64,000 bases of DNA from a virus (IMGVR_UViG_3300021256_000058:117823-181822); one strand, 5' to 3'. Numbered from the stretch's first letter, positions 1,461-63,163 are shown. The notes: a model not told the origin generated them from the sequence alone. Numbers and translations: made by a program.

Positions 1461-1590
1461 CCTTTTGGTATTATATTAAAATAAAAAATAAAAAATATAA
1501 GCGAGCGAGCGAAGCTCGCGAGAAAGGAGACCCACTCCGTGTCACTTTAGGTATGGTTGCCCTTGGATGGCAATCTAAATAACTAGGGGA

Positions 1591-2799
1591 TTGCCTCTTG
1601 CTCGGCAACGGCCGGGGGGGGTATCCGTTTCAAATGATGGAAAGATTGGCTAGTGTTATTATTTTGATGGCTCTGGATATTTATAGTTTGATAGTACAAT
1701 AACTAATGTCATTAGTTCTCTTAATGAAATTACTTTTAGTTTTTGGGCAAAACCTACAACTACTACAGGTATTTAGGGTATTTTTCTTATTCGCCAAGGT
1801 GCTTCCTCTCATTAGATAAACTTTACTAATACTGGTATTGTATATAGAGATGCGGCTCACTCATCTCAGACTACTATTGCTTACCCTGCGGCAGTACAAG
1901 ATATATGGACTCATTATCTTTTTAGTTATGCTCATGGTAATTGGATTGTTTATATAAATGCAGCTCTTATTACAAATTAGGGATATACTGGTACAACTCA
2001 TTTAAATGCTAATCTTAATGAAGTAAGAATAGGACGTGCGCAATCATCTTCAGGCAATATTTATTATACTGGATATATAAATGATTTTCGTATTTATAAC
2101 CATGCATTAGCTGCTGAAGAAGTCCGTTCAATAGTTGCTAATGGTTTAATGATTCATTATCCTCTTAATGGTATGCCAGGAGATAGTGACAATATTGAAT
2201 ACGATATTTCGGGTTATCATAATGATGCGGAAATTGTAGGTATTGGCAAACAAGGATTTATTAGTTCATTAGCTGCACCTAGATATGCACAATCTTATGC
2301 CGGGTTTAGTTTAACTAAATACATAAAAAATGCTGATGTAGCATATGACAGTGGAATATGGTCAATATCTTGTTGGGCTCGTAGTGCTGTGCAACCAAGT
2401 GCTTATGAATCTATTTTTTGTTTAGCGAAAGCTGATGGTGAAGATGCTAATAAAAAAGCTTGTATATGTTATTCACCAACAGCTAATACAATATGGTATG
2501 AACTTGAAAATAAGTCCGGTAATATAGCTGGTATATCATATACAAAATGGTATCATTTTGTAATGACTTGTGATGGGTCTACTGGTAAAGTTTATATTGA
2601 TAATGAATTAAAAGCTACTCAAACAGGAATTACAGTTAGAACAGGATGCCATAATTTAGGTATAGGCTGTAGAAGTGAAAATGACGCATTTACTACTGGC
2701 GTTAGACCATTTACTGCTGGCAATCTTTCCGATTTTAGATTTTATACAAAATGTTTAACGGCTGATGAAGTCAGCCAACTTTATAATATGGGTGTTTAA
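1591..2799 (+). CDS. tandem LamG/ConA-like jelly-roll domain protein; TAG read as sense
   Basis: One frame runs from the TAA at 1576 to the TAA at 2797-2799. Its only internal stops are TAG, for example at 1651, 1684 and 1774. It contains two LamG_3-type C-terminal signatures, FRIYNHALAAEEVRSI and FRFYTKCLTADEVSQLYNMGV. The start is uncertain; the TTG at 1591 has poor SD spacing. Confidence 0.5.
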
Positions 2800-2846
2800 T
2801 GCCCCTTCTTCGGGTTATTAACGCCCGGAGAGGAGGATAAACTCTT

Positions 2847-5309: not shown

Positions 5310-5315
5310 TTATAT

Positions 5316-5352
5316 TGGGAGAACCAAATTAATTGGTTTTCCCAATTTTTTA
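5316..5352 (+). terminator. hairpin plus T-run
   Basis: gggagaaccaa-attaa-ttggttttccc, with one G-U pair, followed by aatttttta. Confidence 0.45.
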
Positions 5353-5388
5353 TTATATTATAGAAATCTAAGAGAGGTGGTAAAATAA

Positions 5389-7806: not shown

Positions 7807-7897
7807 GGCCAAATATATTTAATTATAATTTTACTTTTTTCAAATTCTTTGAAAGAGGTAAGATACCAATTTCACCTACATTATTTTAAACATATAT

Positions 7898-7930
7898 ATA
7901 GGGGAGAGGTATAACCTCTCCCCTATTTTT
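7898..7930 (+). terminator. rho-independent terminator
   Basis: A perfect hairpin ggggagaggt-ataa-cctctcccc is followed by a T7 run. A second hairpin, ccctcc...ggaggg, lies just downstream. Confidence 0.7.
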
Positions 7931-7993
7931 TTATTATATGCCCTCCACCTGCTAAGGCCCGGAGGGACTTTAGCAGAAAGGAGATGCTGAAGA

Positions 7994-28311: not shown

Positions 28312-28902
28312 TTATTCTTTATCATTTTTCGTCCAAGCGCTGATCGCAGCCAGGACTTGTTCTACCGTTTCATCAAGCAATGCACCCGTACCATTCTGGA
28401 CTTCAACATGCTCAGGAAAACGATTATTTATCCATTTGAAGTCTTGTTCATCTGTGCCATAACGTCTAACGATTTCCGCACAGTCTGGATTCGTTTCACG
28501 CATTAGCTGGCGCAATAGCCTAATTTTATCATCAGCTACAATGTAAATAGGCAATACATCAATTGTAGGGTGCTCTATCAATAACTCCAACCCTTCTGGA
28601 TTCCATACGCCAATATTGATTTGATCGTATTTTAATTCATCAAGAGAGGTTCCATAACACCAGTCTCTAAATACTGTAGCTTCTAACATTCGATTATTCA
28701 ATACTAAATCAGTAAATTTTTCATTAGTAATAAAATGATAATCTACTCCGTCTTGTTCTCCCTCTCTCATGGGCCGAGTTGTACAAGAGACAATCTCATG
28801 GAAGCCGCCATTTGCAACGACTTCCTTAAGAATAGTATCTTTACCTGAACCGGCTTTTCCAAAGAGAGCGACTACCTTAATCTTCATCTTCTTCGCTCCC
28901 AT
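28312..28902 (-). CDS. P-loop deoxynucleoside monophosphate / nucleoside kinase
   Basis: Walker A motif ALFGKAGSGKDT in a 196-aa protein ending in TGA. Confidence 0.55.
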   Translation of the reverse strand: MGAKKMKIKVVALFGKAGSGKDTILKEVVANGGFHEIVSCTTRPMREGEQDGVDYHFITNEKFTDLVLNNRMLEATVFRDWCYGTSLDELKYDQINIGVWNPEGLELLIEHPTIDVLPIYIVADDKIRLLRQLMRETNPDCAEIVRRYGTDEQDFKWINNRFPEHVEVQNGTGALLDETVEQVLAAISAWTKNDKE

Positions 28903-42650: not shown

Positions 42651-42663
42651 AATTTCTCCCTTA

Positions 42664-43653
42664 CTTTATACTATATCCATATTCTTTAGCCTTGAAATAA
42701 TCCTACCAATAGTCTTCACGAGCATTGAGATCTTGTGGTTTACATTCTTCAATTATTTCAAATGTAAAATTCTCTACACCAAGAGCTAACATAGCAGGAT
42801 AAAGTTTATTGCGGGTAGGCTATTCTGCGCCTATACCGCGCTTAATGTGCTATTTCCATCTTTCTGCAATATTTATTGCTTGACCTACATAGCACATTTG
42901 ATTTTCTAAATTAGTTATTTTATAAATACCAGTTTTTGATTTTGCCCCTACGACTCGGCCAATCAAATCTGTGTAAGGTTTTTCATAATAAACTTTATAA
43001 ATAACTTTGTTGAGAGGCTCCTTATTTCTTAAATAAGGTTCAACAGATCTCAATTTTGCGATTTCTTCAATATCTATATCAGATAATTGTAACCGATAAA
43101 AATCTTTCTTTTCACGTTCAAGTTCTGCGCGCTTGGCTGCCTCTGTAGCAGCAGTAACTTTAGATTGAAATTCTGCAAGTTGAGCCTAAGCAGCTTCTAC
43201 TTGCTGGCCCATCTACCGCGCAGTAGCAAGGAGATCCGCAATAACCTGTTCATACTCAGCCCTACATTCTTCTTCTCCCTCCTGGTATTTAGCACCAGTT
43301 TTTTCAAGAGCATGTTCAAGCTTTTCTTCTGCAAGTTTCATCTAATTATCATAAAAAGTTTTTGCGGCATCTTCTGCTTGAGCCTATGAATTTTTATAAT
43401 ATCTATCGGTTTCATCTACTTTAGTGCGTAATATTTGAAGTTTTTTCTCTTCTTCTGCCTATTGGAGCTATTTAGTATTAATACTTACTTCAATATTACG
43501 CTATTGACTTTCTAATTCTTGTAGGGCAGCGCGCTCATGAGCAATATTCTCTTCATTTATCTTTCGGATTTGTTGCTGAGGTATAATCCGACAGATTATA
43601 AAGACTATTAAACCTACGATTATGCCCCCTACAAGCGCATATATCCACTACAT
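42664..43653 (-). CDS. N-terminal TM helix + long coiled coil + C-terminal GIY-YIG nuclease domain, about 330 codons with 11 in-frame TAG
   Basis: The start is ATG-TAG-TGG, giving M Q W IYALVGGIIVGLIVFIIC, a TM helix. A Q/E/A-rich coiled coil follows. The C-terminus reads GIYKITNLENQMCYVGQAINIAERWK-Q-HIKRG...FTFEIIEECKPQDLNAREDYW-Q-DYFKAKEYGYSIK, which is colinear with I-TevI-type GIY-YIG domains. It is in frame with the track ORF 42850..43053 and ends in TAA. Confidence 0.65.
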
Positions 43654-43672
43654 TTTTAGATAAAAAACAAAA

Positions 43673-43696
43673 GGGGTAAAAATATTATTTTACCCC
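43673..43696 (-). terminator. hairpin terminator
   Basis: ggggtaaaa / ttttacccc inverted repeat lying after the stop of the 43720 gene. Confidence 0.55.
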
Positions 43697-44301: not shown

Positions 44302-44330
44302 ATTATACTACTTTTTTTTAAAAAAGTCAA
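44302..44330 (-). promoter_or_regulatory. sigma70-type promoter TTGACT-N17-TATAAT
   Basis: + strand attata 44302-07 and agtcaa 44325-30, with a 17-nt spacer. Confidence 0.6.
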
Positions 44331-46318
44331 AATTTTCCGTCAAACAAATCATCTAAATCTTTTTCAGTAATGATCTTGACTCCCAATTTTTTTGCTGTGA
44401 CATTTTTACTTGAAGTAGAATTAATATCATTATTGACCAAATAGGTCGTATTCTTTGTTACTGAACCAGTTACTTTGCCACCATGTGCTTCAATCGCAGC
44501 TTTTAATTCGTCACGATTCTTATATTTTTCAGTTTTCCCCGTAATTACAAAAGTCCAGCCTTTTAGTGGCGTAAAGGCAGGCTTGTCCGCATTCCATAGA
44601 CTATTTTTCAGTTGTCCAATTTCATTTACAAAACGATCTGCAGTTCTATAATCAAATGTCCGAATGGCTCTATCCATTTCTGGACCAAAACCATACCATT
44701 CCATAAAACAAAAACCATCTTCAATATCTTCACGAATATTATGCCAATCACATCTATGTTTACAGATTTCTTTTGCTACAGTAGATCCGATTAATGGAAT
44801 ACCAATAGCAGATATAAATTGCCATAATTCATTCGTTTTTGACTGTTCAATCGCATCTAAAATATTTTGAACAGATTTAGCACCGAATCCAGGCTTATTA
44901 ATCCATTCCTTTTGGTAATTATCCAAAAAGTATAAATCAATAAATGAATTCACCCAGCCCCATTCAATCAATTTTTCCAAAGTTGATGCAGAAAGTCCTT
45001 TTATGTCCATTCCTTTCTTTCCGCAGAAATGATCCAATTGATTAATTAGTTTTCCTGAACACTGAGGATTTGTGCAAACATAATTTTCAGTATCATTATT
45101 TTTAACTAATTCAACTTTTCCTCCGCATACTGGACAGGTATATGGTCTATGCCATATGTCCATACCCATCATACCTGGAGTAGATTTAATATATGCAATT
45201 TGAGGAATAATCATATTTGCTTTATATACACCGACAGTCATTCCAGTAGAAGCAAGTCCACCATTAGGCAGTAGTTTATTCATAATTGAAACATTATGCA
45301 TGCTCGCACGTTCAACAATACTGCCTTCTATTTCTACTGGTTCAAATACTGCAACTGGTGTCAATACTCCTGTGCGGCCCATGCTCCATTCAATATCTTT
45401 TAGATAAGTTTCATAAACTTCATCATAAAATTTATAAGCAAGTCCGCCCCGAAAATGATGTTCAGTATAGCCAAGAGACTGGTAATAGTTACAATCATCA
45501 TATTTAAATACTATCCCATCAATAGGATAACTCTCTTCTTTTGCCCAATTTTTAAGAAGAGCAATAACATGTTCAATACGAGACTTGTCTATCATATCTG
45601 CGGTTAGGGTGAGCCAAGGGGCCGGATCAAATTTCCATTCTTGACAAAGATCTATAAATTTATCCGACAAAAATTCGCGTTTCTCTAATCCCTTAATACA
45701 ATCCCATGCGACAAAACTTAATCCACGTTTTTCACACTCTTTATTATCAAGGAGTCTAATGCTACCTGCTGCGAAATTACGAGGATTTGCGAACATGTGA
45801 TTAAATTTCTCAAAGTTCTTGTATGTACAAATAATTTCGCCATCTACAATAACTTCATTTTTTTCTGGGATTGTTAAAGGCACCCCGTAAGCAAATACAA
45901 TATTGTGTAGAATATCTTCGCCAATAATACCATTACCACGGGTTTCCGCCGATACTAATTTTCCATCCACATATCGCAATGAACAGGTTAAACCATCCAT
46001 TTTTGCCATTGCAATAATTCGCTTATTTCCGCAAAACCTAATCACATCATCTATACTTTTGGTTTTATCCAATGAAAGCATAGGATGATTATGTTCTACT
46101 TTTTTAAGCTCATTTACAGAAAAATAATCTACTTTTACTGTTGGGGAATTGGATAAGATGATCCCTGTTTCTTTTTCCATTTCTTGAAGTTTAAAATAGA
46201 GATCATCATATTCTTTATCTGTCATAAATGGATGACCTTCATCATATGCTTTTATGGCATCGTTAAGAAGATCAACCAATTCATCTATTTGATTGTGCCA
46301 ATCAGGAATGTTACTCAT
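44327..46318 (-). CDS. ligA: NAD-dependent DNA ligase
   Basis: 663 aa. Adenylation motif KMDG (AMAKMDGLTCSLRY), Zn finger CPVCGGK...CTNPQC and a C-terminal BRCT-like tail. It contains no TAG. Confidence 0.9.
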   Translation of the reverse strand: MSNIPDWHNQIDELVDLLNDAIKAYDEGHPFMTDKEYDDLYFKLQEMEKETGIILSNSPTVKVDYFSVNELKKVEHNHPMLSLDKTKSIDDVIRFCGNKRIIAMAKMDGLTCSLRYVDGKLVSAETRGNGIIGEDILHNIVFAYGVPLTIPEKNEVIVDGEIICTYKNFEKFNHMFANPRNFAAGSIRLLDNKECEKRGLSFVAWDCIKGLEKREFLSDKFIDLCQEWKFDPAPWLTLTADMIDKSRIEHVIALLKNWAKEESYPIDGIVFKYDDCNYYQSLGYTEHHFRGGLAYKFYDEVYETYLKDIEWSMGRTGVLTPVAVFEPVEIEGSIVERASMHNVSIMNKLLPNGGLASTGMTVGVYKANMIIPQIAYIKSTPGMMGMDIWHRPYTCPVCGGKVELVKNNDTENYVCTNPQCSGKLINQLDHFCGKKGMDIKGLSASTLEKLIEWGWVNSFIDLYFLDNYQKEWINKPGFGAKSVQNILDAIEQSKTNELWQFISAIGIPLIGSTVAKEICKHRCDWHNIREDIEDGFCFMEWYGFGPEMDRAIRTFDYRTADRFVNEIGQLKNSLWNADKPAFTPLKGWTFVITGKTEKYKNRDELKAAIEAHGGKVTGSVTKNTTYLVNNDINSTSSKNVTAKKLGVKIITEKDLDDLFDGKF

Positions 46319-52240: not shown

Positions 52241-52558
52241 TTATCCGACTGGCGTATCGTCATAAGTTTCAACGCCACGAATCATTTTTTCATAATTAAT
52301 ACCATCTTTGGTATTCTCTTTCTCTGACTTTTTATAGAAAAAAGCCTAACTTACGCCATATGCTCCCCATGGCATTGACACCATGGCAGTTAGCCAGGGC
52401 AGTTCACCGAAATACTACTTGACAATACAATAAAATGCGAGTATAATAAAAGATAGAGTTGTAATCCAAATTAAAATTGATTCTTGTACAAGAAGTTTTT
52501 TGGAGAACTCAAGAGGTTTCTTTTTCTTTGTCTCTTGGGTTTTTTCTTCTTCAGACAT
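52241..52558 (-). CDS. holin-like 2-TM membrane protein with 2 in-frame TAG
   Basis: The ATG is embedded in the endolysin 3' end as gATGtcTGA. The product has the TM helices ILIWITTLSFIILAFYCIV and LPWLTAMVSMPWGAYGV. It is 105 codons, ends in TAA and was missed by the ORF track. Confidence 0.45.
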
Positions 52559-53861
52559 CGAGAGTGTAGGTTAAGTCAATCCAACCTTCACGGTCGGCCA
52601 ACTTACCATATACTCCTTCTTGTTTAGTGATTACAACTTCTTCACCCTGATGCACTAAACCAAGAACTTCAGAATGCTTATTTGACTCGGCACGAATGTT
52701 CAAAGATTGCGCGGTAATACGCACTTTCTGCCCAGCTGCTACTGATGGTTTTGCCGTGCCTACTCCCCAGCGTGGTACACCATAGCCAGCAATTGAACTA
52801 TAACCAATAGGATAAGTGCGTCTTGCTACTTGGTCAGAAGAGTTGCCTTCAATAGTAACTACAGTAGTTGGGGTGACAGATTCTACGATACCAGTATGGT
52901 TAATACCACCACTGTAATAGAAGAAAATTTGAGAACCAACAGCAGGAGTATTACTCCATTGGCCTGCTGCTTTATAATAATCTGCGGAATAAGAACAAGC
53001 TGCTCCGCAATCACCAGTTTGGCAGATTAGGCGTTCTGCTTTTGCGCGATCGCGTCCGCATAGCACCCAATAGCACCAGTCCGCAAAAACATCGCACCAG
53101 GCATAGCCGTTTTTGTTCCCGTTATAATAACCCGCATTAGCTAAATCACGGGCATATTTTGTCCAGTTATTACCGCCCGCGTTTGCAGTTTTATCATCAA
53201 GCTAAGAATTGCTATTTTTCTCCCGATAGCCAATTTCCGCAGCTGCAATCTTAACTAAATTTTGCGGGGTAATATCTCCACTAACCACAGGAGTTGTGTC
53301 ATCTTTTGGTGTAACATCTGTGGTCGAATCGTCATGCTTATTTTCCTGTGCCTCTTGGATTAATTGTAAATATTTTGGATGAACGTTACCAGTTACCAAT
53401 CCAGTTTTCATAGTAGAAATTGTAACGCTACTACTGTTATTAATATTACGAACATATAAGTTCATTTTAAATAACCAACTTGGAATCTTTTGACCGGTAG
53501 TATATGTTGCACCATCTTTAAGTTTTACAATATCTCCGACAGAGAAATTCTTTACTTGTACTTGGTCATCATCTACAATGACCACGGTTGTCTTAGGATA
53601 GCTTGGATTGGTTACAGTATCTCCAAGAGCTTCATAGAGAGCTGTCCAGCTTTGTGGGCCAAATTCTCCATCTGGATCTAAGGAGTGCTCGGTCTAGAAC
53701 TTTATAACTGCGGCTAGGGTATTTGCCCCAAAATCGCCATCAGCGCCATCTGGGCCAAGGTCGTAACCTAATTCAATCAATTTAGTTTGCATATTTTGAG
53801 TATTAGAGCGATCTCTATTATTCAAACGCAATATAACTGATGGAACCGTTCTTACTGCCAT
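52551..53861 (-). CDS. endolysin: PG_binding_1 + CHAP amidase/peptidase + SH3b, with 2 in-frame TAG
   Basis: An ATG follows the RBS aaaggag. PG_binding_1 reads LGYDLGPDGADGDFGANTLAAVIKF-TAG-TEHSLDPDGEFGPQSW, with the TAG at the conserved FQ position. CHAP reads NGYAWCDVF...NHTGIVESV...EGNSS. The C-terminal SH3b reads KVRITAQSLNIRAE...WIDLTY. The track pieces 52551..53066 and 53202..53585 share a frame. Confidence 0.7.
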
Positions 53862-53884
53862 ATTTATACTCCTTTCTTAATATA

Positions 53885-53915
53885 AAAAAGTAAGGTAGAA
53901 ATAAATTCTACCTTA
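53885..53915 (-). terminator. hairpin overlapping the phoH-like stop
   Basis: aaggtagaa-ataaatt-ctacctt. Confidence 0.5.
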
Positions 53916-55193
53916 CATCTGTTCTGCTATTGCTGCTATTCTGCTTCGATGAATCTTAGTAAGTGTTATTTCACCATAAATATCATGGCCTCTAAATACC
54001 TTTGATGCTCGACGCATACCGTTATTTATTCCAGCAAATGCGATATCATCTACCTAGGCTTTTTCGTCACCATCTATGATACAAATACTATCTTCACCAA
54101 TACGTTGTAATGCTAATTTCATCATCGCAATATCGAGGTTTTGAGCTTCTGAAATATAAATACCAGCTTTCATACCGGTAGTATCATAACCTCTAATATC
54201 AGATAATGGAAGTAGAAGTAATTTTTCTTCATCAATTAATTTTTCTACTTCAATTCTGCTGCCGATTTTACTAATAAGTAAATTACCTATCTAAGAATCA
54301 AGAAGTTTCTCTTCTCTTGTACCGGGCAGATAGCCCAATTTGGCAGCGCCTTTGACCGCAACCGTATTGCAAAATACAATTATCTTTTCAATTTTATGTT
54401 TCTCTAATAAGCTAAATAAATAGCCAAGAGAAAGAATGGTTTTACCAGTGCCCGCAGGACCTTTAATCATAGTAATTTTATTATGAACAAGACTATCTGC
54501 AACAAATTGCTGGTGAATATCACCTGGCATTGGTTTAACTGTTCCGAAATGATCGGATGTAAAAGATGTAAAATTAACTTGTCGCCATCCATCGACTGTG
54601 CGAACTAGTCTGTCTACTGGCTCGCCTTCTGGATTACGTAAGATAAGGTATTGATTTATTAAGCAGTCTATGTCGAATTTATGTGAATAGAAATCTGCCA
54701 TAGTTTGCTCATTGGGGCAAGTAAAATCCATTATACCCGTATATTCATCATCTTCTGGTTCTACTGATTCAAGCATTCCGTCGCCAAAGAAAATGTTAGC
54801 TATTTCAAATAAGCAAGCATCATTGGTTACAAAAATTACTTCATCAGTTCGGACATTATTATTATAATCTATCGCAGTTGCTAATATTTTTGTATCATTA
54901 TTTACAGAAAAATTCTTTTCTAAAATAGGAGCAAGCATATCTTCTGTAAAGATATGAACGTGATATTTACCTCTATTTTTTACTAATAAATTGGTTAAAA
55001 TTCTGGCTTTATATTTGGTATCATCATCTTTATTAGCATTAGTTTTGATAGATTCTAATTCTTGTAAAGTGATAGAAGAAATTACGAACTCTTCGTCAGT
55101 CTTAAAAAGAGTAGGAATTTTTAAGAGTAAAGAGCAAGTATCATAAAATCTTATATCAGTCATCATCGTCTTCTTCCTCCTCATAATATTCAT
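53913..55193 (-). CDS. PIN + PhoH-like ATPase (PhoH2/YlaK-type) with 2 in-frame TAG
   Basis: Walker A GPAGTGKT. The sequence continues across the TAG at 54291 into ..VDEAQN-type DIAMMKLALQRIGEDSICIIDGDEKA-TAG-VDDIAF.., and it ends in TAA. Confidence 0.65.
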
Positions 55194-56293: not shown

Positions 56294-56971
56294 TTATCCA
56301 TAATAGCCTCCATCAGGCGGGTCACGTTTAAAATCTTTACATCTTATAGCTTGCCCCGTATAAGCGTTTGCACATTGTAATTCTTTTACACATTTATCAC
56401 AATACACAAATTGTTGATTATAAACTTCTTCTTCAGCTTTTGCTTTAGCACGAAATTCATCAATTTCTTGAATTACAAATTCAAGATCGCAAGGGTAACA
56501 ATCATGAGCATCAACTGATACGTTATAAATCCCATCTTTACCATTATCAAATGGATCAGTTTTATGAGTATGCCCAGAAAGATTCCAGGTTGGATGTTTG
56601 TCTTTATAATTTCCCATTAGCATAGGGTAATGGGTTAGCCAAAGAGAATATTGCCCATACTTAATTCGATAACCAATTTCAATTTTATCAAAGATTTTTT
56701 CTTCATAAAATCTTTCAATGCGTTTATTGCTATCATGATTTCCGATTGCAAGATATTTATGCCCATTTAATCTTTTAAGACATTTAATCCCGGTTTCTGT
56801 ATCTTTAAGTGTGCAATCTCCAAGGATGTAAAGAGTATCTTCGGGGGTTACAATACTATTAAAGCGAGAAATGATTGCTTCATTCATTTCTTCAACAGTT
56901 TTAAACCCTCTTCGCTCATAAACAAAATCTTTATCGTGACAAAAATGCGGGTCACTGGTTACATAAATCAA
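56294..56971 (-). CDS. calcineurin-like metallophosphoesterase
   Basis: Contains IYVTSDPHFCH, ILGDC and GNHD motifs. It is 225 aa, with a C-terminal Cys cluster. Confidence 0.7.
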   Translation of the reverse strand: MIYVTSDPHFCHDKDFVYERRGFKTVEEMNEAIISRFNSIVTPEDTLYILGDCTLKDTETGIKCLKRLNGHKYLAIGNHDSNKRIERFYEEKIFDKIEIGYRIKYGQYSLWLTHYPMLMGNYKDKHPTWNLSGHTHKTDPFDNGKDGIYNVSVDAHDCYPCDLEFVIQEIDEFRAKAKAEEEVYNQQFVYCDKCVKELQCANAYTGQAIRCKDFKRDPPDGGYYG

Positions 56972-56978
56972 TCACTTC

Positions 56979-57473
56979 TCACTCCTTTACATAGATAATA
57001 TTATAATGGTCACTACAACCATCAGTTGCGGGGTCGGTCTGCTGATACCACATGCGGCGGACCGCAGAAACAGGAACAAATGAACGTCCATCTCGTTTCG
57101 CATTACGCTCAAGACAAGTTTCAAGAGGAACTTGAAATGATACTACATTAACATCGGCATTATCCAAATGAAGTCTCTTGAGAATTTTATTACGAGAATT
57201 AAAATTCAAATGAGTGGCATCAACATAAATATTGTCAGGGCCATTTTCATTATCAATTGCCGCATTTGCCGCATCAACAAATTTTTTGAAAACTTCATCT
57301 TCGCGCACAAAATAATATTCGCCTTCTTTAAGATTGGCAAATCTTACTGCATCACGAGAGATATGAATTCCACCATTCTCTGCAATCTGTTTGGCGATAT
57401 AAGTGCTTTTACCACATCCGGGTGCTCCCGACATAAGATATACTTGCTTGTGCTTCATTTTTGAACACTCCAT
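56979..57473 (-). CDS. P-loop polynucleotide kinase-like protein
   Basis: Walker A YLMSGAPGCGKST. It is 164 aa and lies immediately upstream of the metallophosphoesterase. Confidence 0.55.
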   Translation of the reverse strand: MECSKMKHKQVYLMSGAPGCGKSTYIAKQIAENGGIHISRDAVRFANLKEGEYYFVREDEVFKKFVDAANAAIDNENGPDNIYVDATHLNFNSRNKILKRLHLDNADVNVVSFQVPLETCLERNAKRDGRSFVPVSAVRRMWYQQTDPATDGCSDHYNIIYVKE

Positions 57474-57675
57474 TCTGAAAATCTTTTAAAAATTCTTGTA
57501 CTTCTTCTTCATTTGTGCATTCGATATGATTTACTGTTTGTTTACAATTCGGACAATAAAGCACCTTTCTGTGGAATTTACCGTGTTTATGATTATTTCT
57601 TCTACTAATTGGAATCCCGCGTTTACCGCAGTTCATACAATAAAATTCATGCGTTTCATAACTTGCCATCACCAT
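57409..57675 (-). CDS. zinc-ribbon protein
   Basis: CMNCGKR...CPNCKQT. Confidence 0.4.
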   Translation of the reverse strand: MVMASYETHEFYCMNCGKRGIPISRRNNHKHGKFHRKVLYCPNCKQTVNHIECTNEEEVQEFLKDFQNGVFKNEAQASISYVGSTRMW

Positions 57676-57698
57676 TACCTTCCTTTATCTTTAATTAT

Positions 57699-57727
57699 AT
57701 TATACCATATTTTAAATAAAAAATCAA
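57699..57727 (-). promoter_or_regulatory. sigma70-type promoter TTGATT-N17-TGgTATAAT
   Basis: + strand attataccat 57699-708 and aatcaa 57722-27, with a 17-nt spacer. Confidence 0.65.
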
Positions 57728-57744
57728 GAAAGGACTAAATATCT

Positions 57745-58110
57745 TTAGTCCTCTTCTCTCTCTTGGATTACAAAAATGTCTCCACGATGTTCCAACACAT
57801 CATATTTTTTAATTACTTCAATATAAGGCATATCTGAAAATTTAACCTCATAAATTGGTTTTTCTTTTGTAATAGGAACTTGATGGAAACAAGCTACTGA
57901 GCCGGCAATTGCTCCTGCTAAAATTAATATTAAAAACATTTCAGCTGGATCAAAATCTCCACGATTATTTATTCTATATCGCACATATGCAATTAGTCCA
58001 ATTAAAGCACCAATTCCCAGTAGTACTCCAAAAATCCACATATTATCAGGGTCTAGTCCCCAAGAACTTCCAATTTTAACTGTCTCTGTATACTGGTTCA
58101 CAATTTCCAC
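57745..58110 (-). CDS. membrane protein (2 TM)
   Basis: Contains the hydrophobic segments WIFGVLLGIGALIGLIAYV and LILILAGAIAGSVA. Confidence 0.45.
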   Translation of the reverse strand: MEIVNQYTETVKIGSSWGLDPDNMWIFGVLLGIGALIGLIAYVRYRINNRGDFDPAEMFLILILAGAIAGSVACFHQVPITKEKPIYEVKFSDMPYIEVIKKYDVLEHRGDIFVIQEREED

Positions 58111-58555
58111 TTTTAATTTCCTCCCGCACTTGCATTAAGATCTTACCAAGTCTATTTTCGCCAGGAATATTTTTGCATTTAGGACAATGACAATTTCCCC
58201 AAATATTATCATGCCATGTATTACCTTCCTCAAGTTCTTCATCACCAGTCTCCAGAAGCAATTCACGCAGATCAATCCAACGGAATTTCCCACGTACACC
58301 TTCCAACATTACGTCAGTTTTTATAGCGTTCCAGTCTGGGCGTAAGTCAACGTGTCTGCCTATACGCTTGGCTTCTCCTGGTGTGCTGGCCGCTGCTATT
58401 TCTCGCCTAATATTTAGGTCTTTTGTTTTCATAGCCTGAAAATAATGCTCTACTGTTGGGTAATCAATGATTTCTCCTTGACCCGGCTCTTCATGCACTG
58501 GAGATGGAGCAAAATTACTTAAAAAAGCATATTTCCCTTCAAAACTATCAATCAT
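58076..58555 (-). CDS. NADAR (YbiA/DUF1768) domain protein
   Basis: Contains YAFLSNFAPSPV...VEHYFQAMK...GEAKRIGR. It is 159 aa. Confidence 0.65.
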   Translation of the reverse strand: MIDSFEGKYAFLSNFAPSPVHEEPGQGEIIDYPTVEHYFQAMKTKDLNIRREIAAASTPGEAKRIGRHVDLRPDWNAIKTDVMLEGVRGKFRWIDLRELLLETGDEELEEGNTWHDNIWGNCHCPKCKNIPGENRLGKILMQVREEIKSGNCEPVYRDS

Positions 58556-58590
58556 ATTTTAAATCACCTTTATCTTTATTTTATATATAT

Positions 58591-58619
58591 ATTATACCAT
58601 ATTATTTAATAAAAATCAA
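58591..58619 (-). promoter_or_regulatory. sigma70-type promoter TTGATT-N17-TGgTATAAT
   Basis: + strand attataccat 58591-600 and aatcaa 58614-19, with a 17-nt spacer. Confidence 0.65.
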
Positions 58620-58631
58620 TATATAAAATAA

Positions 58632-58666
58632 ATACGGGACACATTATTATGTCCCGTATTTCTTAT
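58632..58666 (-). terminator. hairpin terminator
   Basis: atacgggaca-cattattat-gtcccgtat, followed on the - strand by a T-rich run. Confidence 0.6.
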
Positions 58667-58671
58667 TGACA

Positions 58672-59565
58672 TTATTCAGTTGGTACATTTTCAGTCGGTG
58701 TATTGGTAAGATCTAGCATAATACCAGTAGTATCACCAAGCATAGTAGTAGGCAGTTCACCATTCCACTGTTTAATCCAGTAGTAATCAATCAACTCTGG
58801 ACTCAAAGCTTCTGCGATGCGCTGGTTCATTTCTGCCTCACGCTGGCCTGCATACAGACTTGCTTCAGCTTGAATCTTTACTACCTCAAGATCCGCATTA
58901 GCCGCGATTACCGCCTGTTCAGCGTCTGCATTTGCAGTAATAATTGCACGTTTAGCTCTTGCTTCCTCTTCCATAGTGGCCTGCTCTTGTTCAGTCTGAG
59001 CTTTTAGTTTATTCTGGGCAGCAACCTGCTTTGCTTCTACGGCATTAGTAAAAGCATCAGTAAAGTCCAGATCTTCAATGGAAGTGCCAACAATTTCGAT
59101 ATTGTACTTCTGGAGTAATACAACAAGGATTTCCTCAATTTCAGTTGCAAGCTTATCACGATTATTAATTAGACCTTCAGCAGTATAATGAGCTGTGGCA
59201 GTCTTTACAGCTTCACTGATATTAGGAGCAATGACTGTATCGAAGTAGCCTTTGCCAATAGTGCGGTAAATAGTCATTGCATCACTCTTGCTGATCTGAT
59301 AGTTGATTGTATATGTAACTGCTGTTTCCTGAATGTCTTTAGAAAATGCGCTCATTTGAATTGTATGCTTCTGGATTCGGTTGTCCATTTTTACAACGCT
59401 TGTAAAAGGTGATTTTAGATGAAAACCACTATCAAGCGTATAGTCTGCGACTTTACCAAATGTGACTGGCACTCCAGTAAATCCTGCTGGAACTGAAGTA
59501 AAACATGACAGCCCAATCAGTGTTAGCAATGCAACAATGACAGCAATAACAATCAGTCTTTTCAT
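58672..59565 (-). CDS. SPFH/band-7 (prohibitin/HflC-like) membrane protein
   Basis: An N-terminal TM helix, then an SPFH core (..YTINYQISKSDAMTIYRTIG..), then an Ala/Glu/Gln-rich coiled coil. Confidence 0.65.
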   Translation of the reverse strand: MKRLIVIAVIVALLTLIGLSCFTSVPAGFTGVPVTFGKVADYTLDSGFHLKSPFTSVVKMDNRIQKHTIQMSAFSKDIQETAVTYTINYQISKSDAMTIYRTIGKGYFDTVIAPNISEAVKTATAHYTAEGLINNRDKLATEIEEILVVLLQKYNIEIVGTSIEDLDFTDAFTNAVEAKQVAAQNKLKAQTEQEQATMEEEARAKRAIITANADAEQAVIAANADLEVVKIQAEASLYAGQREAEMNQRIAEALSPELIDYYWIKQWNGELPTTMLGDTTGIMLDLTNTPTENVPTE

Positions 59566-59608
59566 TATTTAGTTTTCTCCTTTTATTCTATCTATAATGG
59601 CTTCCTTC

Positions 59609-60835
59609 TTAGCCGTGGAATTTAAGAAGGAAGCTATTGCTTACTGCTTTGAAAGATTTCTGACCATCAAGGCTACGCAAGACGAATCCCTCACGAGGTT
59701 TCCCATCGAGTTTAGAATTGCCTTCGGCCATAGCCAGAAGTCCATCAACATCAAGTCCATCGAACTTGAAATTACTATCTACTACTGGTACACAAGGTAC
59801 TTCATAGCCATTCAGCTCAATGATCATATCGAGAGTTCCCCAACGACCCTTATCTGAAGTGATTAGGTTAAAAGCCCGGAAATCATGATCTTCGATTGAA
59901 TAATCACGACGCTGGACTCCCGCGCCATAAGTTTCACCCTGGATAGTAACCCACTGAGCTTCTGGATGGTTCATCAGAAATTTATTGAGTACGTTGAACA
60001 TATCATATTTCTGAGCCATTTCCCAGTAAATATTGGTGTCATAATAGCAAGGTTTATCCACGCTATCAAAGCAGACGTTACGAGAACAAACGTAGAAATC
60101 ATTTTTTCTGTGTTTTCCACGCTTCATAGTGAAAGTAGTAGAACTACCATCAATTTTCTCGGTAACAATCCAATCCCCAGTATCATTAAGAATCCAAGGC
60201 ATATTCTGTACACGCTCTTCATCGGTTTTAGCTACCCATTCAGGCCAGCCATTTTTCTTATCTTTCTTTTTACCGAAAAGAACAAATAGAATCTTTTTAC
60301 CCCAAGTGCGTTTCATAAGCCAACGCACGAAAGGCTTACGGAAGATCGCAGGATGGCGCTGAGCCATCTTTTTATATTTATCTGCGGAAGGAGCTTTTCT
60401 CTGGTTATCTTCAGCATCAGCGTAAGTCACACCAAGTTCTTTAGTAAGAAAACGAGACTCACCATCAGCGTACCAAATACGAGAATTATCTTTAGGATCA
60501 TAAATAAGAACATGTCCATCTGCGTCAAGGCCATTTTTCCAACCAAAATCTTCTGCGTGCATAAGGAGACCCTGAGAAAGAACTTTACACATTTTAAGGG
60601 TTTTGACTTTATAATTGCGTTTCTCAAGAAATGCAAAGCATTCCTTATCTGCGGGAACACGAGAGTCAATTTCAAAATAGATTGCAGGATCACCAACTTT
60701 AAACTGGCCTTTCTGCACAATTACTCGCCAGCCACCAACGGTAGCATGTTCTACTCGGTCATAGCCAGGGATAGGATCAATTCCATCTATGGTTACTACA
60801 TATGCAAGCTCACGCTCGCTGTTTGCATTTAGCAT
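59609..60835 (-). CDS. ATP-dependent RNA/DNA ligase-family nucleotidyltransferase
   Basis: The KxDG adenylation motif, in WIVTEKIDGSSTTFTM, sits around residue 225 of 408. Confidence 0.55.
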   Translation of the reverse strand: MLNANSERELAYVVTIDGIDPIPGYDRVEHATVGGWRVIVQKGQFKVGDPAIYFEIDSRVPADKECFAFLEKRNYKVKTLKMCKVLSQGLLMHAEDFGWKNGLDADGHVLIYDPKDNSRIWYADGESRFLTKELGVTYADAEDNQRKAPSADKYKKMAQRHPAIFRKPFVRWLMKRTWGKKILFVLFGKKKDKKNGWPEWVAKTDEERVQNMPWILNDTGDWIVTEKIDGSSTTFTMKRGKHRKNDFYVCSRNVCFDSVDKPCYYDTNIYWEMAQKYDMFNVLNKFLMNHPEAQWVTIQGETYGAGVQRRDYSIEDHDFRAFNLITSDKGRWGTLDMIIELNGYEVPCVPVVDSNFKFDGLDVDGLLAMAEGNSKLDGKPREGFVLRSLDGQKSFKAVSNSFLLKFHG

Positions 60836-61090: not shown

Positions 61091-61283
61091 TTATTTCTCC
61101 TTCAAGCAAGGCGCATACTCTATCACAAGCATCATCTTTCTCTGCTTCAGTTATTTTACGCCATTTCCAAGCCCAACTAATATAATCGGCTATGGAAGAA
61201 ATGGAACGCTCATAGTATCCATGTTTCTCATGCTGTTTAATGGCGCGATCAATTTTTTCATAGACAGTCATATTAATCCTCAC
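61074..61283 (-). CDS. hypothetical protein
   Basis: An intact 69-aa ORF. Confidence 0.4.
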   Translation of the reverse strand: MRINMTVYEKIDRAIKQHEKHGYYERSISSIADYISWAWKWRKITEAEKDDACDRVCALLEGEINGNIY

Positions 61284-61842
61284 ATTTTCTCAGCACATAA
61301 TTACCAAACTTAATTGATACAGTCGGATTGGCGGCCTTCTTCACTTTTTCAAACGTCTCAAGAACGCCTTTCGGGTTGCTCGACAAAGATTTATCTGCCA
61401 GCATAAGAGCTTTGGCAACATCGAACTCAACTTTGACCCCGTTCATAAAGACTTTTGTCACTGGAGCCGATTCCGCACCAGGGGCGCTGACCGCATGTAT
61501 CGCCTGATCTTCTTTAGCTCTTTTGGTGTTTTCTTCCTTAGTAACCCATTCCAAATTTTTGAGAGAGTTATCTCTGGTATTATGATTCAGATGATCGACG
61601 GTGAGATTCGCGTAGTTAGGAACTGGATTGAAAGTCTGCATAACCAGTCTATGTACGAGTTTCCCTTTATAGACAAGGTAATTATCTTTTACACCAACTG
61701 TCTGCAGAACGCCATTCTTATCTTTGATGCGCCCAAGAGAGGAAACATAAATATCCAAAGCCATACAATATTTCCATTTCTCAATCCCAAAATGGATCTG
61801 CGGACGCAAGAATTTAATCTTTTCTTTGACTGTCATAATCAT
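61273..61842 (-). CDS. HNH homing-endonuclease-like protein
   Basis: Contains LTVDHLNHNTRDNSLKNLEWVTKEEN, an HNH motif, and has a NUMOD-like N-terminus. Confidence 0.6.
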   Translation of the reverse strand: MIMTVKEKIKFLRPQIHFGIEKWKYCMALDIYVSSLGRIKDKNGVLQTVGVKDNYLVYKGKLVHRLVMQTFNPVPNYANLTVDHLNHNTRDNSLKNLEWVTKEENTKRAKEDQAIHAVSAPGAESAPVTKVFMNGVKVEFDVAKALMLADKSLSSNPKGVLETFEKVKKAANPTVSIKFGNYVLRKCED

Positions 61843-62332: not shown

Positions 62333-63163
62333 TTAAGTATTATGGAGATAGAACTGCGGCCCTTTTACGAGCCACCAGTCGAGCTCACCAGTTTCATCAT
62401 AATGAGCCCACCGGTCCGCAATAACCTCAAGTTCTTCCATGTCTTTAAAGTACATTTCAGCATGAGGAGCCTCAATTCTATCCGCATGGAAGTGACCAAA
62501 ACACCAGACTTTAAACTTAATTTCATCTTTCAATCGGTCCATCCATGTTTCCATTGAATTATCTACTGTCTTTTGGTCAATTGCCCCAAGGAACATATCA
62601 GTAGGTTCCCAAGAGAGGGGGCAAGTATGACTCAAGACAAAATCAAAATGAGCATTATGATTATATACAAATAAATGTTCAGCTTTTGTCATTTCTTCAA
62701 AACTAAGCTGTTCATCTGCCCACCAACCAGTTTTCTTTGGATTATTATTTAACTCATTCATATTGGCTCGTTGGAGTCGCCACCATTTGTCAACAGAATA
62801 AGCCCCGCCAATAACTGCGCACTTAAATCCATTGATCCAATAGACACCATAATCTTCAAAATAACGAATATGCGGATACTCGTGTTCTAGCCATACATGA
62901 CCGCCAACATTCGCGTCCCAGATCTGGACCATGTCAGAAAGAGATTGCGGTCTTGCTTCATGATTGCCACGAACTACATAAATATAGTATCCTTTGGCAT
63001 CAACTTCTTTTTTAACTCTTATGTCAGTCTTATTAAGGTAGAAATTAAATCCAGCATCTCCCAGAATAATTATTCCTGTATCTTCTGGGGTATATTTATC
63101 AAGGCGCTCATTACACAGCCAAGTGAATTCACCATGACAATCGCCACGTATTAGAAATTTCAT
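62333..63163 (-). CDS. lambda-phosphatase-like metallophosphoesterase
   Basis: Contains GDCHG, ILGDAG and VRGNHEARP motifs. It is 276 aa. Confidence 0.65.
   Translation of the reverse strand: MKFLIRGDCHGEFTWLCNERLDKYTPEDTGIIILGDAGFNFYLNKTDIRVKKEVDAKGYYIYVVRGNHEARPQSLSDMVQIWDANVGGHVWLEHEYPHIRYFEDYGVYWINGFKCAVIGGAYSVDKWWRLQRANMNELNNNPKKTGWWADEQLSFEEMTKAEHLFVYNHNAHFDFVLSHTCPLSWEPTDMFLGAIDQKTVDNSMETWMDRLKDEIKFKVWCFGHFHADRIEAPHAEMYFKDMEELEVIADRWAHYDETGELDWWLVKGPQFYLHNT

Follow-up and report, generated by a model that had tools for sequence, protein, structure and literature searches.

The window analysed here (the whole stretch of viral DNA, 64,000 nucleotides, of a large uncultivated phage) contained genes for a putative polynucleotide kinase (56979..57473), a putative metallophosphoesterase (56294..56971) and a putative RNA ligase (59609..60835), all three on the minus strand and exactly at the coordinates given in an earlier note on this DNA. 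The phosphoesterase gene started 7 nt past the stop codon of the kinase, directly after it as the earlier note had described, and the ligase gene, placed there about 2 kb from the kinase, was upstream, with 2135 nt from its end to the kinase start and four ORFs in between (SPFH, NADAR, membrane and zinc-finger proteins). The family matches of the three predicted proteins far exceeded chance. The genes were located within a replication/nucleotide-metabolism block (gyrase A/B, RNase H, LigA, DnaB, primase, RecJ, polymerase and NrdD). An NAD-dependent DNA ligase, LigA (44327-46318; adenylation, OB, Zn and BRCT domains), and a guanylate kinase encoded by a separate gene (28312-28902) already fill these two roles in the phage. 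The phage reads TAG as glutamine in late genes; in-frame TAG was absent from the genes of the candidate cassette, so early expression, ahead of any code switch, is possible. The sample used for linkage comprised 80 related metagenomic phage ligase loci.

The kinase ORF (164 aa) had been described as a polynucleotide-kinase-like P-loop protein, and comparison of sequence and structure confirmed it as a predicted stand-alone 5'-OH polynucleotide kinase of the T4 Pnk type with an intact active site. It has a P-loop, GAPGCGKST, at residues 16-24, matched Pfam AAA_33 (4.6e-15) and PHROG 505 “polynucleotide kinase” (1.3e-21), and showed ~33% identity to T4-like PseT; the closest solved proteins were Pnkp1 (4xrp, 1.2e-7, the best) and T4 Pnk (1ly1, 1.2e-6). 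The full catalytic set of T4 was present: K22, S23, D41, R44, R123 and R127 correspond to T4 K15, S16, D35, R38, R122 and R126. Across 120 homologs, these positions showed little or no variation; the P-loop lysine was invariant and the S/T conserved in these homologs and in 59 related loci, and D41, R44 and R127 were invariant, and R123 present in 44 of 60, in the window and the same 59 loci. The first 5 residues were absent in homologs, so the kinase probably starts at Met6 (57458; 159 aa). The 120 homologs listed of 265 were single-domain proteins, AAA_33-type only, of ~160 aa (range ~150-200 aa), and a fused C-terminal HAD (DxDxT) 3'-phosphatase domain was absent from them and from the 164-aa kinase. 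The same kinase domain forms the N-terminus of PHROG 8238, a 737-residue “RNA ligase” family. An alignment to dNMP kinases, the outcome that the earlier note had set against its reading, did not occur: NMP kinases scored well below Pnk. Assignment as a dNMP/NMP kinase was rejected (UMP/CMP kinase 3.4e-4 vs. 1.2e-7 for Pnkp1 in PDB), as was assignment as a guanylate or thymidylate kinase (1e-4 to 1e-3 vs. 1e-21 for polynucleotide kinase in PHROG).

The 408-aa ligase, recognized earlier by its KxDG motif, was identified by sequence and structure comparison as a predicted ATP-dependent RNA ligase of the Rnl5 family (NgrRnl/DraRnl type). It consists of an N-terminal OB domain (~residues 8-95), a linker or insert of ~100 aa and a nucleotidyltransferase domain (196-405), with matches to the Pfam families PHA02142 OB-fold (2.6e-21, residues 10-92) and RNA_ligase (3.3e-20, residues 221-398); no C-terminal module follows, the latter match ending at residue 398 and the protein at 408. 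The best PDB match was the Naegleria gruberi RNA ligase (5cot, E 1.3e-31), spanning both domains, and the match to NCBIfam TIGR02306 RNA_lig_DRB0094 was 1.1e-33 (116.5 bits, under the equivalog cut-off of 151.15). The protein is best described, from these matches, as a divergent phage branch of Rnl5 with an inter-domain insert. Motif I, KIDGS (residues 227-231, codons at 60143..60157, minus strand), aligned to NgrRnl K170-L-D172-G-S; K227 is the lysine nucleophile that is adenylylated, and the K and D of the motif were invariant in 81 sequences. Residues R8, D57, R208, K227, D229, E301, E382 and K396 correspond to the ATP/metal contacts R4, D53, R149, K170, D172, E227, E312 and K326 of NgrRnl and were invariant in the 80 relatives, a comparison that covers the eight alignable residues, NgrRnl K121 falling in the unaligned insert. 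A DNA ligase, considered earlier under the form of an enzyme with OB and Zn domains, was rejected, as the protein lacks C-terminal OB, Zn finger and BRCT/HhH modules and the true LigA is elsewhere in the window. Phage homologs of Rnl5 have been noted before (PMC4408790, PMC1807946), and the physiological partners and substrates of the family have been called uncharted (PMC5397189).

The phosphoesterase (225 aa, TTG start) showed every one of the motifs DxH, GD, GNHD, H and GHxH, all conserved, with the metal ligands of both sites complete, plus the GNH(D/E) histidine. Its match to Pfam Metallophos was weak (7.3e-5), that to PHROG 547 was 2e-45, and it has a C-terminal Cys4 tail ending in KRDPPDGGYYG. 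The calcineurin-type enzyme of the earlier note was therefore right as to an intact binuclear member of the superfamily, but the clade is that of aq_1665/COG4186, and a place in the lambda/CthPnkp clade was rejected. The GNH(D/E) histidine is reported to help determine whether enzymes of the superfamily act as 2',3'-cyclic phosphodiesterases (PMC3675462). We propose that the protein may be an end-healing enzyme for 2',3'-cyclic phosphates or 3'-phosphates, a role to which this histidine and the adjoining kinase gene point indirectly. Substrates are not known for any enzyme of the aq_1665/COG4186 clade. In the cultured phages examined, no kinase or ligase adjoined the COG4186 phosphoesterase; in Pseudomonas phage EM, it was 40 kb from the Rnl5 gene. 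A lambda-phosphatase-type enzyme, of the clade that includes the CthPnkp phosphatase, was found in the cassette of ~26 of the 80 relatives and could be the true 3'-healing enzyme in those carrying it; there was none in the window. A second metallophosphoesterase (62333..63163, minus strand; 276 aa), encoded upstream of the ligase, had a fold closest to CWF19L1, aq_1956 and Dbr1 and often neighboured the cassette in related phages.

Several smaller genes accompanied these three, all on the minus strand. A small zinc-ribbon protein (57409..57675; 88 aa, CxxC...CxxC, conserved GH(L/R)KK motif; PHROG 1257, 6.1e-11) is probably an accessory subunit whose translation is coupled to that of the kinase: the 3' end of its gene overlapped the kinase start by ~50 nt, the same 50-nt overlap was seen in the related contigs L084 and L087, and the gene immediately preceded that of the kinase in 28 of the 80 ligase loci, plus L084, L087, L092 and L093. 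Directly downstream of the ligase was a gene for an SPFH/Band 7 protein (58672..59565; Pfam Band_7, 7.3e-31), which recurs beside Rnl5-type ligases: 15 of 80 loci had it near the ligase, L084, L085 and L094 had it after the kinase pair, and in Pseudomonas phage PAK_P3 it was two genes from the Rnl5 gene. The NADAR-domain gene (58076..58555; Pfam NADAR, 1.9e-30) was shared by only 2 of the 80 related loci and looks like an accessory insertion, not part of the cassette core. Between the NADAR and zinc-finger genes, a small predicted membrane protein (57745..58110) gave no match in Pfam/PHROG family searches and was not conserved in relatives (1 of 80 loci).

Terminator-like hairpins were seen after the SPFH gene (58630..58661, 14-bp stem and T tract) and ahead of the zinc-finger-kinase-phosphoesterase run (57754..57729), each followed by a promoter-like site (58619..58591 and 57727..57699, the latter with an extended -10 and just upstream of that run), again all on the minus strand; these sites are consensus matches only, in regional number not above chance, both falling in intergenic gaps. 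Their positions suggest that the zinc-finger, kinase and phosphoesterase genes may form their own transcription unit, and ligase-SPFH, NADAR-membrane protein and zinc-finger-kinase-phosphoesterase appear to be separate units in the window.

Both the kinase and the phosphoesterase genes were found within 10 kb of the ligase in 59 of the 80 loci, on the same strand in every one, and adjoined each other in 51 of these 59. The pair was together on either side of the ligase (upstream in 16 loci, downstream in 43), often directly after it in relatives, and the kinase started less than 800 nt from the ligase end in 29 loci. Among the 35 loci with full flanks, the pair was kept in 31 and absent within 10 kb of the ligase in four, while the best of the 13 other neighbours in the window was kept in 18. 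Contig L093, with a ligase only 45% identical, kept the order ligase, zinc-finger, kinase, phosphoesterase; L084 and L094 had no close Rnl5, and in both a divergent gene of the RNA_ligase family preceded the same kinase pair; the pair of L085 had no recognisable ligase in the 8 kb around it. Evolution has kept the three genes linked, part of the synteny being inherited and not independently selected, since all related loci belong to one broad phage lineage.

We give about an even chance to the reading in which the three genes form a conserved phage cassette healing and sealing broken nucleic-acid strands. The kinase would phosphorylate the 5'-OH end using NTP, probably with its zinc-ribbon partner; the COG4186/aq_1665-type phosphoesterase would strip the 2',3'-cyclic phosphate or 3'-phosphate to give a 3'-OH; and the Rnl5 ligase, adenylylated at K227, would give AMP to the 5'-phosphate and join this end to the RNA 3'-OH. 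Characterised Rnl5 enzymes require a duplex whose nick has ribonucleotides on its 3'-OH side, and sealing of such 3'-OH(RNA)/5'-PO4 nicks by the family is Mn-dependent. The most likely substrates would therefore be RNAs with a nick in a base-paired stretch (stems of tRNA or rRNA, guide- or template-paired RNA). The nicks might be made by host metal-independent ribonucleases during infection, and the purpose may be counter-defence. Several findings count against this reading: the COG4186 phosphoesterases of cultured phages that have no adjoining kinase or ligase, the lambda-phosphatase-type enzyme of some relatives, the terminator- and promoter-like sites between the genes, the loci in which the pair and the ligase are not near each other, the single phage lineage, the Rnl5 physiology of D. 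radiodurans, and a window lacking tRNA genes and an anticodon-nuclease context.

In a T4-like version of counter-defence, the kinase and phosphoesterase would act as Pnkp and the ligase as Rnl1, rejoining tRNAs whose anticodon loop a host anticodon nuclease had cut. The enzyme set fits the T4 Pnkp/Rnl1 chemistry, relatives carry tRNA-related genes (Thg1-like, YqeY) near the cassette, the Rnl5 gene of Microbacterium phage Cece is beside a tRNA array and RtcB, and the N-domain of Rnl5 is similar to the OB domain with which PheRS binds tRNA (PMC1807946). We nevertheless consider it unlikely. Rnl5 is a sealer of duplex nicks and feeble on single-stranded RNA, loop sealing being the speciality of Rnl1 and Rnl4 (PMC4408790), so anticodon-loop repair is not the obvious task of this ligase; neither tRNA genes nor an anticodon-nuclease context was found in the window, and the host nuclease is not known; and the T4-like Aeromonas phage examined has Rnl5 besides Rnl1, which implies a different job for Rnl5.

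The same enzymes might serve replication-linked or DNA repair and act, within the phage genome, on 5'-OH/3'-phosphate nicks or on junctions of RNA with DNA (ribonucleotide patches, remnants of primers); the model is the part that DraRnl has been proposed to play when Deinococcus reassembles its genome. T4-type Pnk acts on DNA and RNA alike, and the cassette is inside the replication/nucleotide-metabolism block. Rnl5 tolerates DNA on the 5'-phosphate and template strands, with RNA strictly required at the 3'-OH, and loss of DraRnl delays genome reassembly in D. radiodurans, where the sole physiological evidence for the family points to repair of DNA after irradiation (PMC5397189). In that species the Rnl5 gene DR_B0094 is a few locus tags from the DR_B0100-DR_B0098 operon (LigB, ADP-ribose glycohydrolase and 5'-OH polynucleotide kinase), which parallels the ligase, NADAR and kinase genes found here. 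This parallel is not a conserved feature, since NADAR was present in only 2 of 80 relatives; the strict RNA requirement at the 3'-OH also counts against DNA repair, and the phage LigA, RNase H and RecJ already serve ordinary nick and primer processing, which leaves it a rather improbable role.

Least probable is that the genes are neighbours with no shared pathway, the kinase and ligase being independent, the phosphoesterase acting on cyclic nucleotides, oligonucleotide signals, Ap4A, nucleotide pools or phosphoproteins, and the clustering reflecting inherited order in an accessory-rich early region: COG4186 phosphoesterases are widespread in phages with no adjoining kinase or ligase, there are apparent transcription-unit boundaries between the ligase and the kinase pair, the region is an accessory mosaic (NADAR, SPFH, HNH, two or three different metallophosphoesterases, PIN-PhoH) and all 80 loci come from related phages, but the pair outlasts rearrangement with respect to the ligase, no other neighbour is retained nearly as often, a ligase of the same superfamily is upstream of it even in L084 and L094, and Pnk-type kinases are not known to have a small-molecule role.

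The putative healing-and-sealing cassette can be compared with several known systems. The earlier note had seen in it the Pnkp/Rnl-type enzyme set in the domain order of Clostridium-type Pnkp; the order kinase, then phosphoesterase holds, but the ligase is upstream and not C-terminal, and the proteins are separate and unfused. With Clostridium thermocellum Pnkp (Pnkp-Hen1) it shares a kinase followed by a calcineurin-superfamily phosphoesterase, an ATP-dependent RNA ligase, and metal-binding motifs including the GNH(D/E) histidine; the single polypeptide, the lambda-type phosphatase (GDxxDRG arginine), the Rnl4 ligase and the Hen1 partner of CthPnkp/TIGR04075 were not found, and no Hen1 was seen here. 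T4 Pnkp (PseT) is likewise phage-encoded and its kinase domain is related in sequence, with catalytic residues kept; the overall chemistry predicted from the genes (5' phosphorylation, 3' dephosphorylation, ATP-dependent sealing) is that of T4 Pnkp with Rnl1/Rnl2, whereas T4 joins kinase and HAD/DxDxT phosphatase in one protein where the window has a lone kinase plus a binuclear metallophosphoesterase, and the ligase here is an Rnl5 (N-terminal OB), not Rnl1 or Rnl2. The Capnocytophaga Pnkp1-Rnl-Hen1 system, source of the best solved kinase match (4xrp, 1.2e-7), likewise has an unfused ligase, whose gene lies upstream of that for the kinase-phosphatase, the two being co-translated (PMC4411300), but in Pnkp1 the kinase and a HAD-type phosphatase form one protein, and the Rnl4-like ligase requires Hen1. 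The window phosphoesterase adds a Cys4 tail, with KRDPPDGGYYG at its end, to the type of Aquifex aeolicus aq_1665 (PDB 1xm7)/COG4186 and, unlike those examined in cultured phages, is beside a kinase and near a ligase. DraRnl and NgrRnl share with the window ligase the order N-terminal OB then nucleotidyltransferase, the lack of a C-terminal module and the eight alignable active-site residues; the window ligase differs in length (408 aa vs. ~340), in its insert of ~60-100 aa between the domains and in its linkage to end-healing genes. In phages, polynucleotide kinases and phosphoesterases are generally found together with RNA ligases, and in a few cases the phosphatases are calcineurin-like (PMC7824862).

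The three open reading frames that the earlier note had proposed as a Pnkp/Rnl-type RNA repair module (56294-60835) were present as proposed, all on the minus strand. The transcription order was ligase (60835-59609), SPFH/Band 7 protein (59565-58672), NADAR-domain protein (58555-58076; NADAR, 1.9e-30), small membrane protein (58110-57745), zinc-ribbon protein of 88 aa (57675-57409), kinase (57473-56979), phosphoesterase (56971-56294) and, last in this order, a 69-aa ORF (orf69). The phosphoesterase followed the kinase directly (7 nt from kinase stop to phosphoesterase start), and the ligase lay about 2 kb away, with 2135 nt between the ligase end and the kinase start. A terminator-like hairpin with a downstream promoter-like site was located in the gap after the SPFH gene (58661-58591), and another such pair in the gap preceding the zinc-ribbon gene (57754-57699). 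These sites, which were consensus matches only and whose total count in the region was not above chance, suggest three transcription units: ligase-SPFH, NADAR-membrane protein, and zinc ribbon-kinase-phosphoesterase-orf69. About 50 nt of the zinc-ribbon gene, read in another frame, overlapped the start of the kinase gene (57409-57473, minus strand), likewise in two related phage loci (L084 and L087); this repeated overlap argues for translational coupling of the two genes, and their products perhaps form a complex.

The ligase carried the KIDGS motif at residues 227-231, an N-terminal PHA02142 OB-fold (2.6e-21) and a C-terminal RNA_ligase domain (3.3e-20), and its top solved match was the Naegleria gruberi RNA ligase (NgrRnl; 5cot, 1.3e-31), spanning both domains; its description as an RNA ligase was upheld. 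An N-terminal OB domain joined to a nucleotidyltransferase, with no module C-terminal to it, characterises the Rnl5 family (PMC4408790, PMC5397189). The match to TIGR02306, the model of the Deinococcus radiodurans Rnl5 (DraRnl), had an E value of 1.1e-33 and a score of 116.5 bits, below the equivalog cut-off of 151. NgrRnl residues R4, D53, R149, K170, D172, E227, E312 and K326 corresponded to R8, D57, R208, K227, D229, E301, E382 and K396, all of them invariant in 80 relatives, and an inter-domain insert made the ligase about 70 aa longer than NgrRnl. Elsewhere in the window (44327-46318) lay the gene for a genuine NAD-dependent DNA ligase, whose adenylation, OB, Zn and BRCT domains were all recognised. 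Given the Rnl5 layout and this separate LigA, the possibility raised in the earlier note, that 59609-60835 might encode a DNA ligase with OB and Zn domains, was therefore rejected.

The kinase had only a generic AAA_33 match in Pfam (4.6e-15), and matched “polynucleotide kinase” phrog_505 in PHROGs (1.3e-21). Its closest solved relatives were Capnocytophaga Pnkp1 (4xrp, 1.2e-7) and T4 polynucleotide kinase (1ly1, 1.2e-6), and the nearest relatives in cultured phages were the kinase domains of T4-like PseT proteins (about 33% identity). Alignment with T4 Pnk and 120 metagenomic homologs placed T4 residues K15, S16, D35, R38, R122 and R126 at K22, S23, D41, R44, R123 and R127, positions that were invariant or nearly so, and the assignment to the polynucleotide-kinase type was thus confirmed. 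A dNMP kinase, the other identity considered, was rejected: NMP kinase structures scored far lower than Pnkp1 or T4 Pnk, and a genuine guanylate kinase was encoded at 28312-28902. The first five residues were missing from the homologs, so the true start is probably Met6, at 57458. In all 120 matches listed, the homologs were stand-alone proteins of about 160 aa.

The phosphoesterase retained all the motifs of binuclear metallophosphoesterases in conserved form (D7xH9, G51D52, G77N78H79D80, H114 and G133H134xH136), and its AlphaFold model was confident, at a mean pLDDT of 91.6. Aquifex aq_1665 (1xm7, 2.6e-10) was the only solved relative detectable by sequence, and membership of the lambda-phosphatase clade that includes Clostridium thermocellum Pnkp (CthPnkp) was rejected. 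We know of no function for aq_1665 or the COG4186 phosphoesterases, and a literature search on 1XM7 found no paper. Matches among viral models were uncharacterised “COG4186 predicted phosphoesterase” proteins of many phages, the type being common in Herelleviridae, Vibrio, Escherichia and other phages. The histidine of the GNH(D/E) motif, a reported determinant of 2',3'-cyclic phosphodiesterase activity in the metallophosphoesterase superfamily (PMC3675462), was present. Judged from its neighbourhood, and not from homology to a known RNA end-healing enzyme, the protein is a putative 3'-end-healing enzyme. Its homologs were single-domain in all 120 matches listed, and no kinase-phosphoesterase or kinase-ligase fusion was found among the homologs searched (120 listed matches each, all single-domain).

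The C-terminus of the phosphoesterase (56294-56410, minus strand) comprised a CxxC...C...C tail followed by the terminal peptide KRDPPDGGYYG, modelled less confidently (pLDDT 54-80). About half of the metagenomic homologs shared this tail in strongly conserved form, but the phosphoesterases of the 80 ligase loci lacked it; it was not matched in cultured phages and was carried by no other protein of the window or loci; it may be a Zn knuckle plus docking peptide.

A second phosphoesterase (62333-63163) was rejected as a lambda/CthPnkp type, its nearest folds being CWF19L1, aq_1956 and Dbr1. An enzyme of lambda-phosphatase/ApaH type (GDxxDRG and GNHE motifs; best PDB match 1g5b, 3.6e-8) did occur in relatives, directly upstream of the zinc-ribbon and kinase genes in seven loci (L014, L052, L084, L085, L087, L092 and L094, in the last at 7215-7925) and, in about 26 of the 80 ligase loci, no more than a few kb away. 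The CthPnkp phosphatase belongs to the lambda-phosphatase-type clade (PMC3675462), so this enzyme may be the 3'-healing enzyme in those phages. No lambda-type phosphatase gene was found in the 64-kb window, where its position was taken by the NADAR and membrane protein genes.

The healing-and-sealing interpretation was upheld for the kinase and ligase identities and for the three active sites, which sequence and structure comparison showed to be intact, but not in its Clostridium-like form, as the phosphoesterase fell outside the CthPnkp clade and the ligase was an Rnl5. The best-supported reading, with about an even chance, is that the cassette is an end-healing and sealing set, in which the kinase would phosphorylate the 5'-OH end, the COG4186 phosphoesterase would clear the 2',3'-cyclic or 3'-phosphate, and Rnl5 would join the resulting 3'-OH/5'-PO4 nick; we infer the cooperation of the three enzymes, the phosphoesterase substrate and the biological target. 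Healing and sealing of broken RNA is an established counter-defence of phages (T4 Pnkp and Rnl1 against PrrC), and the earlier note had accordingly supposed a repair of cleaved tRNAs. A strict T4-like repair of anticodon loops is nevertheless unlikely: characterised Rnl5 seals 3'-OH(RNA)/5'-PO4 nicks in duplexes and is feeble on single-stranded RNA, loop breaks being the province of Rnl1 and Rnl4 (PMC4408790). This specificity makes nicks in RNA-DNA hybrids or base-paired RNA a likelier target than open anticodon loops.

A replication-linked or DNA-level repair, as suggested for DraRnl, would fit the placement of the cassette among genes for gyrase, RNase H, LigA, DnaB, primase, RecJ, polymerase and NrdD. 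On the Deinococcus megaplasmid, Rnl5 lies near an operon of LigB, an ADP-ribose-glycohydrolase and Pnk, and the sole genetic study of Rnl5 implicates it in genome reassembly after irradiation, its physiological function and substrates being described as uncharted (PMC5397189). We regard this explanation as rather improbable.

A DNA-level search with the 4.5-kb region detected no related cultured phage, only a 48-nt match in the NADAR gene, and a single-sequence kinase query found no match among viral contigs. The ligase query against IMG/VR returned 80 loci (56-76% identity, contigs up to 240 kb), in whose 10-kb flanks 16 window proteins were sought by tblastn. Kinase and phosphoesterase were both within 10 kb of the ligase in 59 of the 80 loci, on the ligase strand in every case, and adjacent to each other in 51 of these 59. 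The kinase was downstream of the ligase in 43 loci (up to 150 nt away in 5, 151-800 nt in 24, where the zinc-ribbon gene was often the sole gene between them, and further in 14) and upstream in 16; the pair was therefore kept together through rearrangements. As an internal control, retention was compared among the 35 loci whose flanks reached 8 kb or more on both sides of the ligase: kinase and phosphoesterase were each retained in 31, PIN-PhoH in 18, the second phosphoesterase in 15, the zinc ribbon in 13, SPFH in 8, NADAR in 2 and the remaining neighbours in 0-9. All these loci come from related phages, so part of the synteny is inheritance. In a more distant contig (L093) the ligase was only 45% identical, yet the order ligase-zinc ribbon-kinase-phosphoesterase was kept. 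Two loci found through the kinase (L084, L094) had no close Rnl5 by tblastn; a divergent RNA_ligase-family gene lay a few kb upstream of the pair in both (PF09414, 3.5e-9 in L094; in L084 at 2.7e-5, short of the Pfam gathering score, alongside a weak match to the PHA02142 OB domain).

The pair was missing from 4 ligase loci with full flanks, and in one locus that had the pair (L085) no ligase was recognised within 8 kb. Three cultured Herelleviridae and Streptomyces phages were inspected, and in them the phosphoesterase occurred without an adjacent kinase or RNA ligase; cultured Pseudomonas, Microbacterium and Aeromonas phages had Rnl5 without either partner adjacent. A kinase-profile scan of cellular genomes recovered three phage-like contigs, binned in Bacillota, Eubacterium and Bacteroides MAGs, and many stand-alone Acidobacteria kinases, which were judged uninformative because no cassette genes were detectable near them. 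A mere neighbourhood of unrelated accessory genes, compatible with these separate occurrences and with the inherited synteny, is quite unlikely beside the 31 of 35 loci that retain the kinase and the phosphoesterase.

Other genes of the region were more variable. The NADAR protein (58076-58555, minus strand), between ligase and kinase, was found in only 2 of the 80 relatives and is thus probably mobile and accessory, with a role connected to ADP-ribose or ADP-ribosylated nucleic acid. The same reasoning applies to an HNH homing-type endonuclease (61273-61842, minus strand; HNH_3, 5.1e-12) between the second phosphoesterase and the ligase, which occurred in 5 of 80 and is probably a mobile insertion. 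The SPFH/Band 7 protein (58672-59565) recurred beside Rnl5-type ligases or the kinase pair in this phage lineage (L084, L085, L094, and L089 at 2412-3263) and, independently, two genes from the Rnl5 ligase of Pseudomonas phage PAK_P3. Genes for a Thg1-like 3'-5' nucleotidyltransferase, YqeY, NAMPT and NAD synthase were located up to 6 kb upstream of the pair in close relatives (L084, 104-979; L085, 2290-3129 and neighbours), and are further tRNA- and NAD-related content of the same genome region. The closest cassette contigs in the species-genome collection (L092, L093, L094) belonged to MAGs labelled Bacillota (rumen “RUG”), Bacteroides and Eubacterium; these labels, together with the NrdD/NrdG genes and a CHAP/SH3 lysin, point to an anaerobic gut or rumen bacterium, possibly Gram-positive, as host.

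Part of the phage genome appears to be translated with TAG as a sense codon. PIN and PhoH together form an RNA helicase/RNase architecture, and the PIN-PhoH gene (53913-55193, minus strand), a frequent cassette neighbour (24 of 80 loci), was apparently truncated at 54291 (300 aa) under the standard code; it continued in frame through TAGs at 54293 and 54056 to about 425 aa, and a homolog aligned in a single frame over 55154-53916 (53% identity over 418 aa). Reading TAG as sense also joined plus-strand ORF fragments at 2.8-18.9 kb, giving lengths of 822, 805, 2497 and 1127 aa with 12-18 in-frame TAGs in every one; neither TGA nor TAA as sense gave ORFs of comparable length. The regions concerned were 1579-18883 (plus strand) and 20355-20900, 42661-43689 and 52551-55193 (minus strand). 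In-frame TAGs at 53696 and 53204 also divide the endolysin gene (52551-53861, minus strand), whose product has CHAP, SH3 and peptidoglycan-binding-like parts, into three ORFs that probably make up one gene of about 436 aa. Homologs most often had glutamine at the two PIN-PhoH TAGs, and glutamine is the most likely meaning. No tRNA gene, suppressor tRNAs included, was found in the 64-kb window. The cassette genes, gyrA, gyrB and ligA contained no in-frame TAG and ended in TAA or TGA, as would be expected of genes whose expression precedes a code switch.

To our knowledge, the worked-out cases of phage healing and sealing involve only HAD-type or lambda-type phosphatases and Rnl1 or Rnl4 ligases; here a large clade of uncultivated gut or rumen phages has conserved a different combination, of a T4-type kinase, a COG4186 metallophosphoesterase and Rnl5. 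That it represents an undescribed multi-component repair system around Rnl5, comprising ligase, zinc ribbon, Pnk kinase, COG4186 phosphoesterase and often SPFH, is a speculative and distinctly improbable reading; if true, the Rnl5 family would gain its first physiological partners and pathway, and the COG4186/aq_1665 phosphoesterases their first function. On this reading the cassette of these TAG-recoding phages might specifically protect the translation apparatus, for example tRNA or rRNA stems needed for the code switch, against host ribonucleases. Since Rnl5 substrates are uncharted and COG4186 is without known function, the linkage gives both families a hypothesis for which three small soluble proteins would suffice in vitro, and its main value is this concrete set of partners. 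It would leave the general picture of phage RNA repair as it is. A survey of jumbo phages had already noted phage RNA ligases in the company of polynucleotide kinases and phosphoesterases, with calcineurin-like enzymes as the phosphatase in a few phages (PMC7824862), so sets of this kind are known and only the combination is new. No Hen1 was seen with the window cassette. The cassette would work like T4 Pnkp plus Rnl and like the bacterial Pnkp-Hen1 and Pnkp1-Rnl-Hen1 systems, yet it belongs to none of these systems: its kinase is of the T4 Pnkp/Pnkp1 type but without the fused HAD phosphatase, the phosphoesterase shares a superfamily with the CthPnkp phosphatase but falls in a different, uncharacterised clade, and the ligase is an Rnl5 instead of the Rnl1, Rnl2 or Rnl4 of the known systems.
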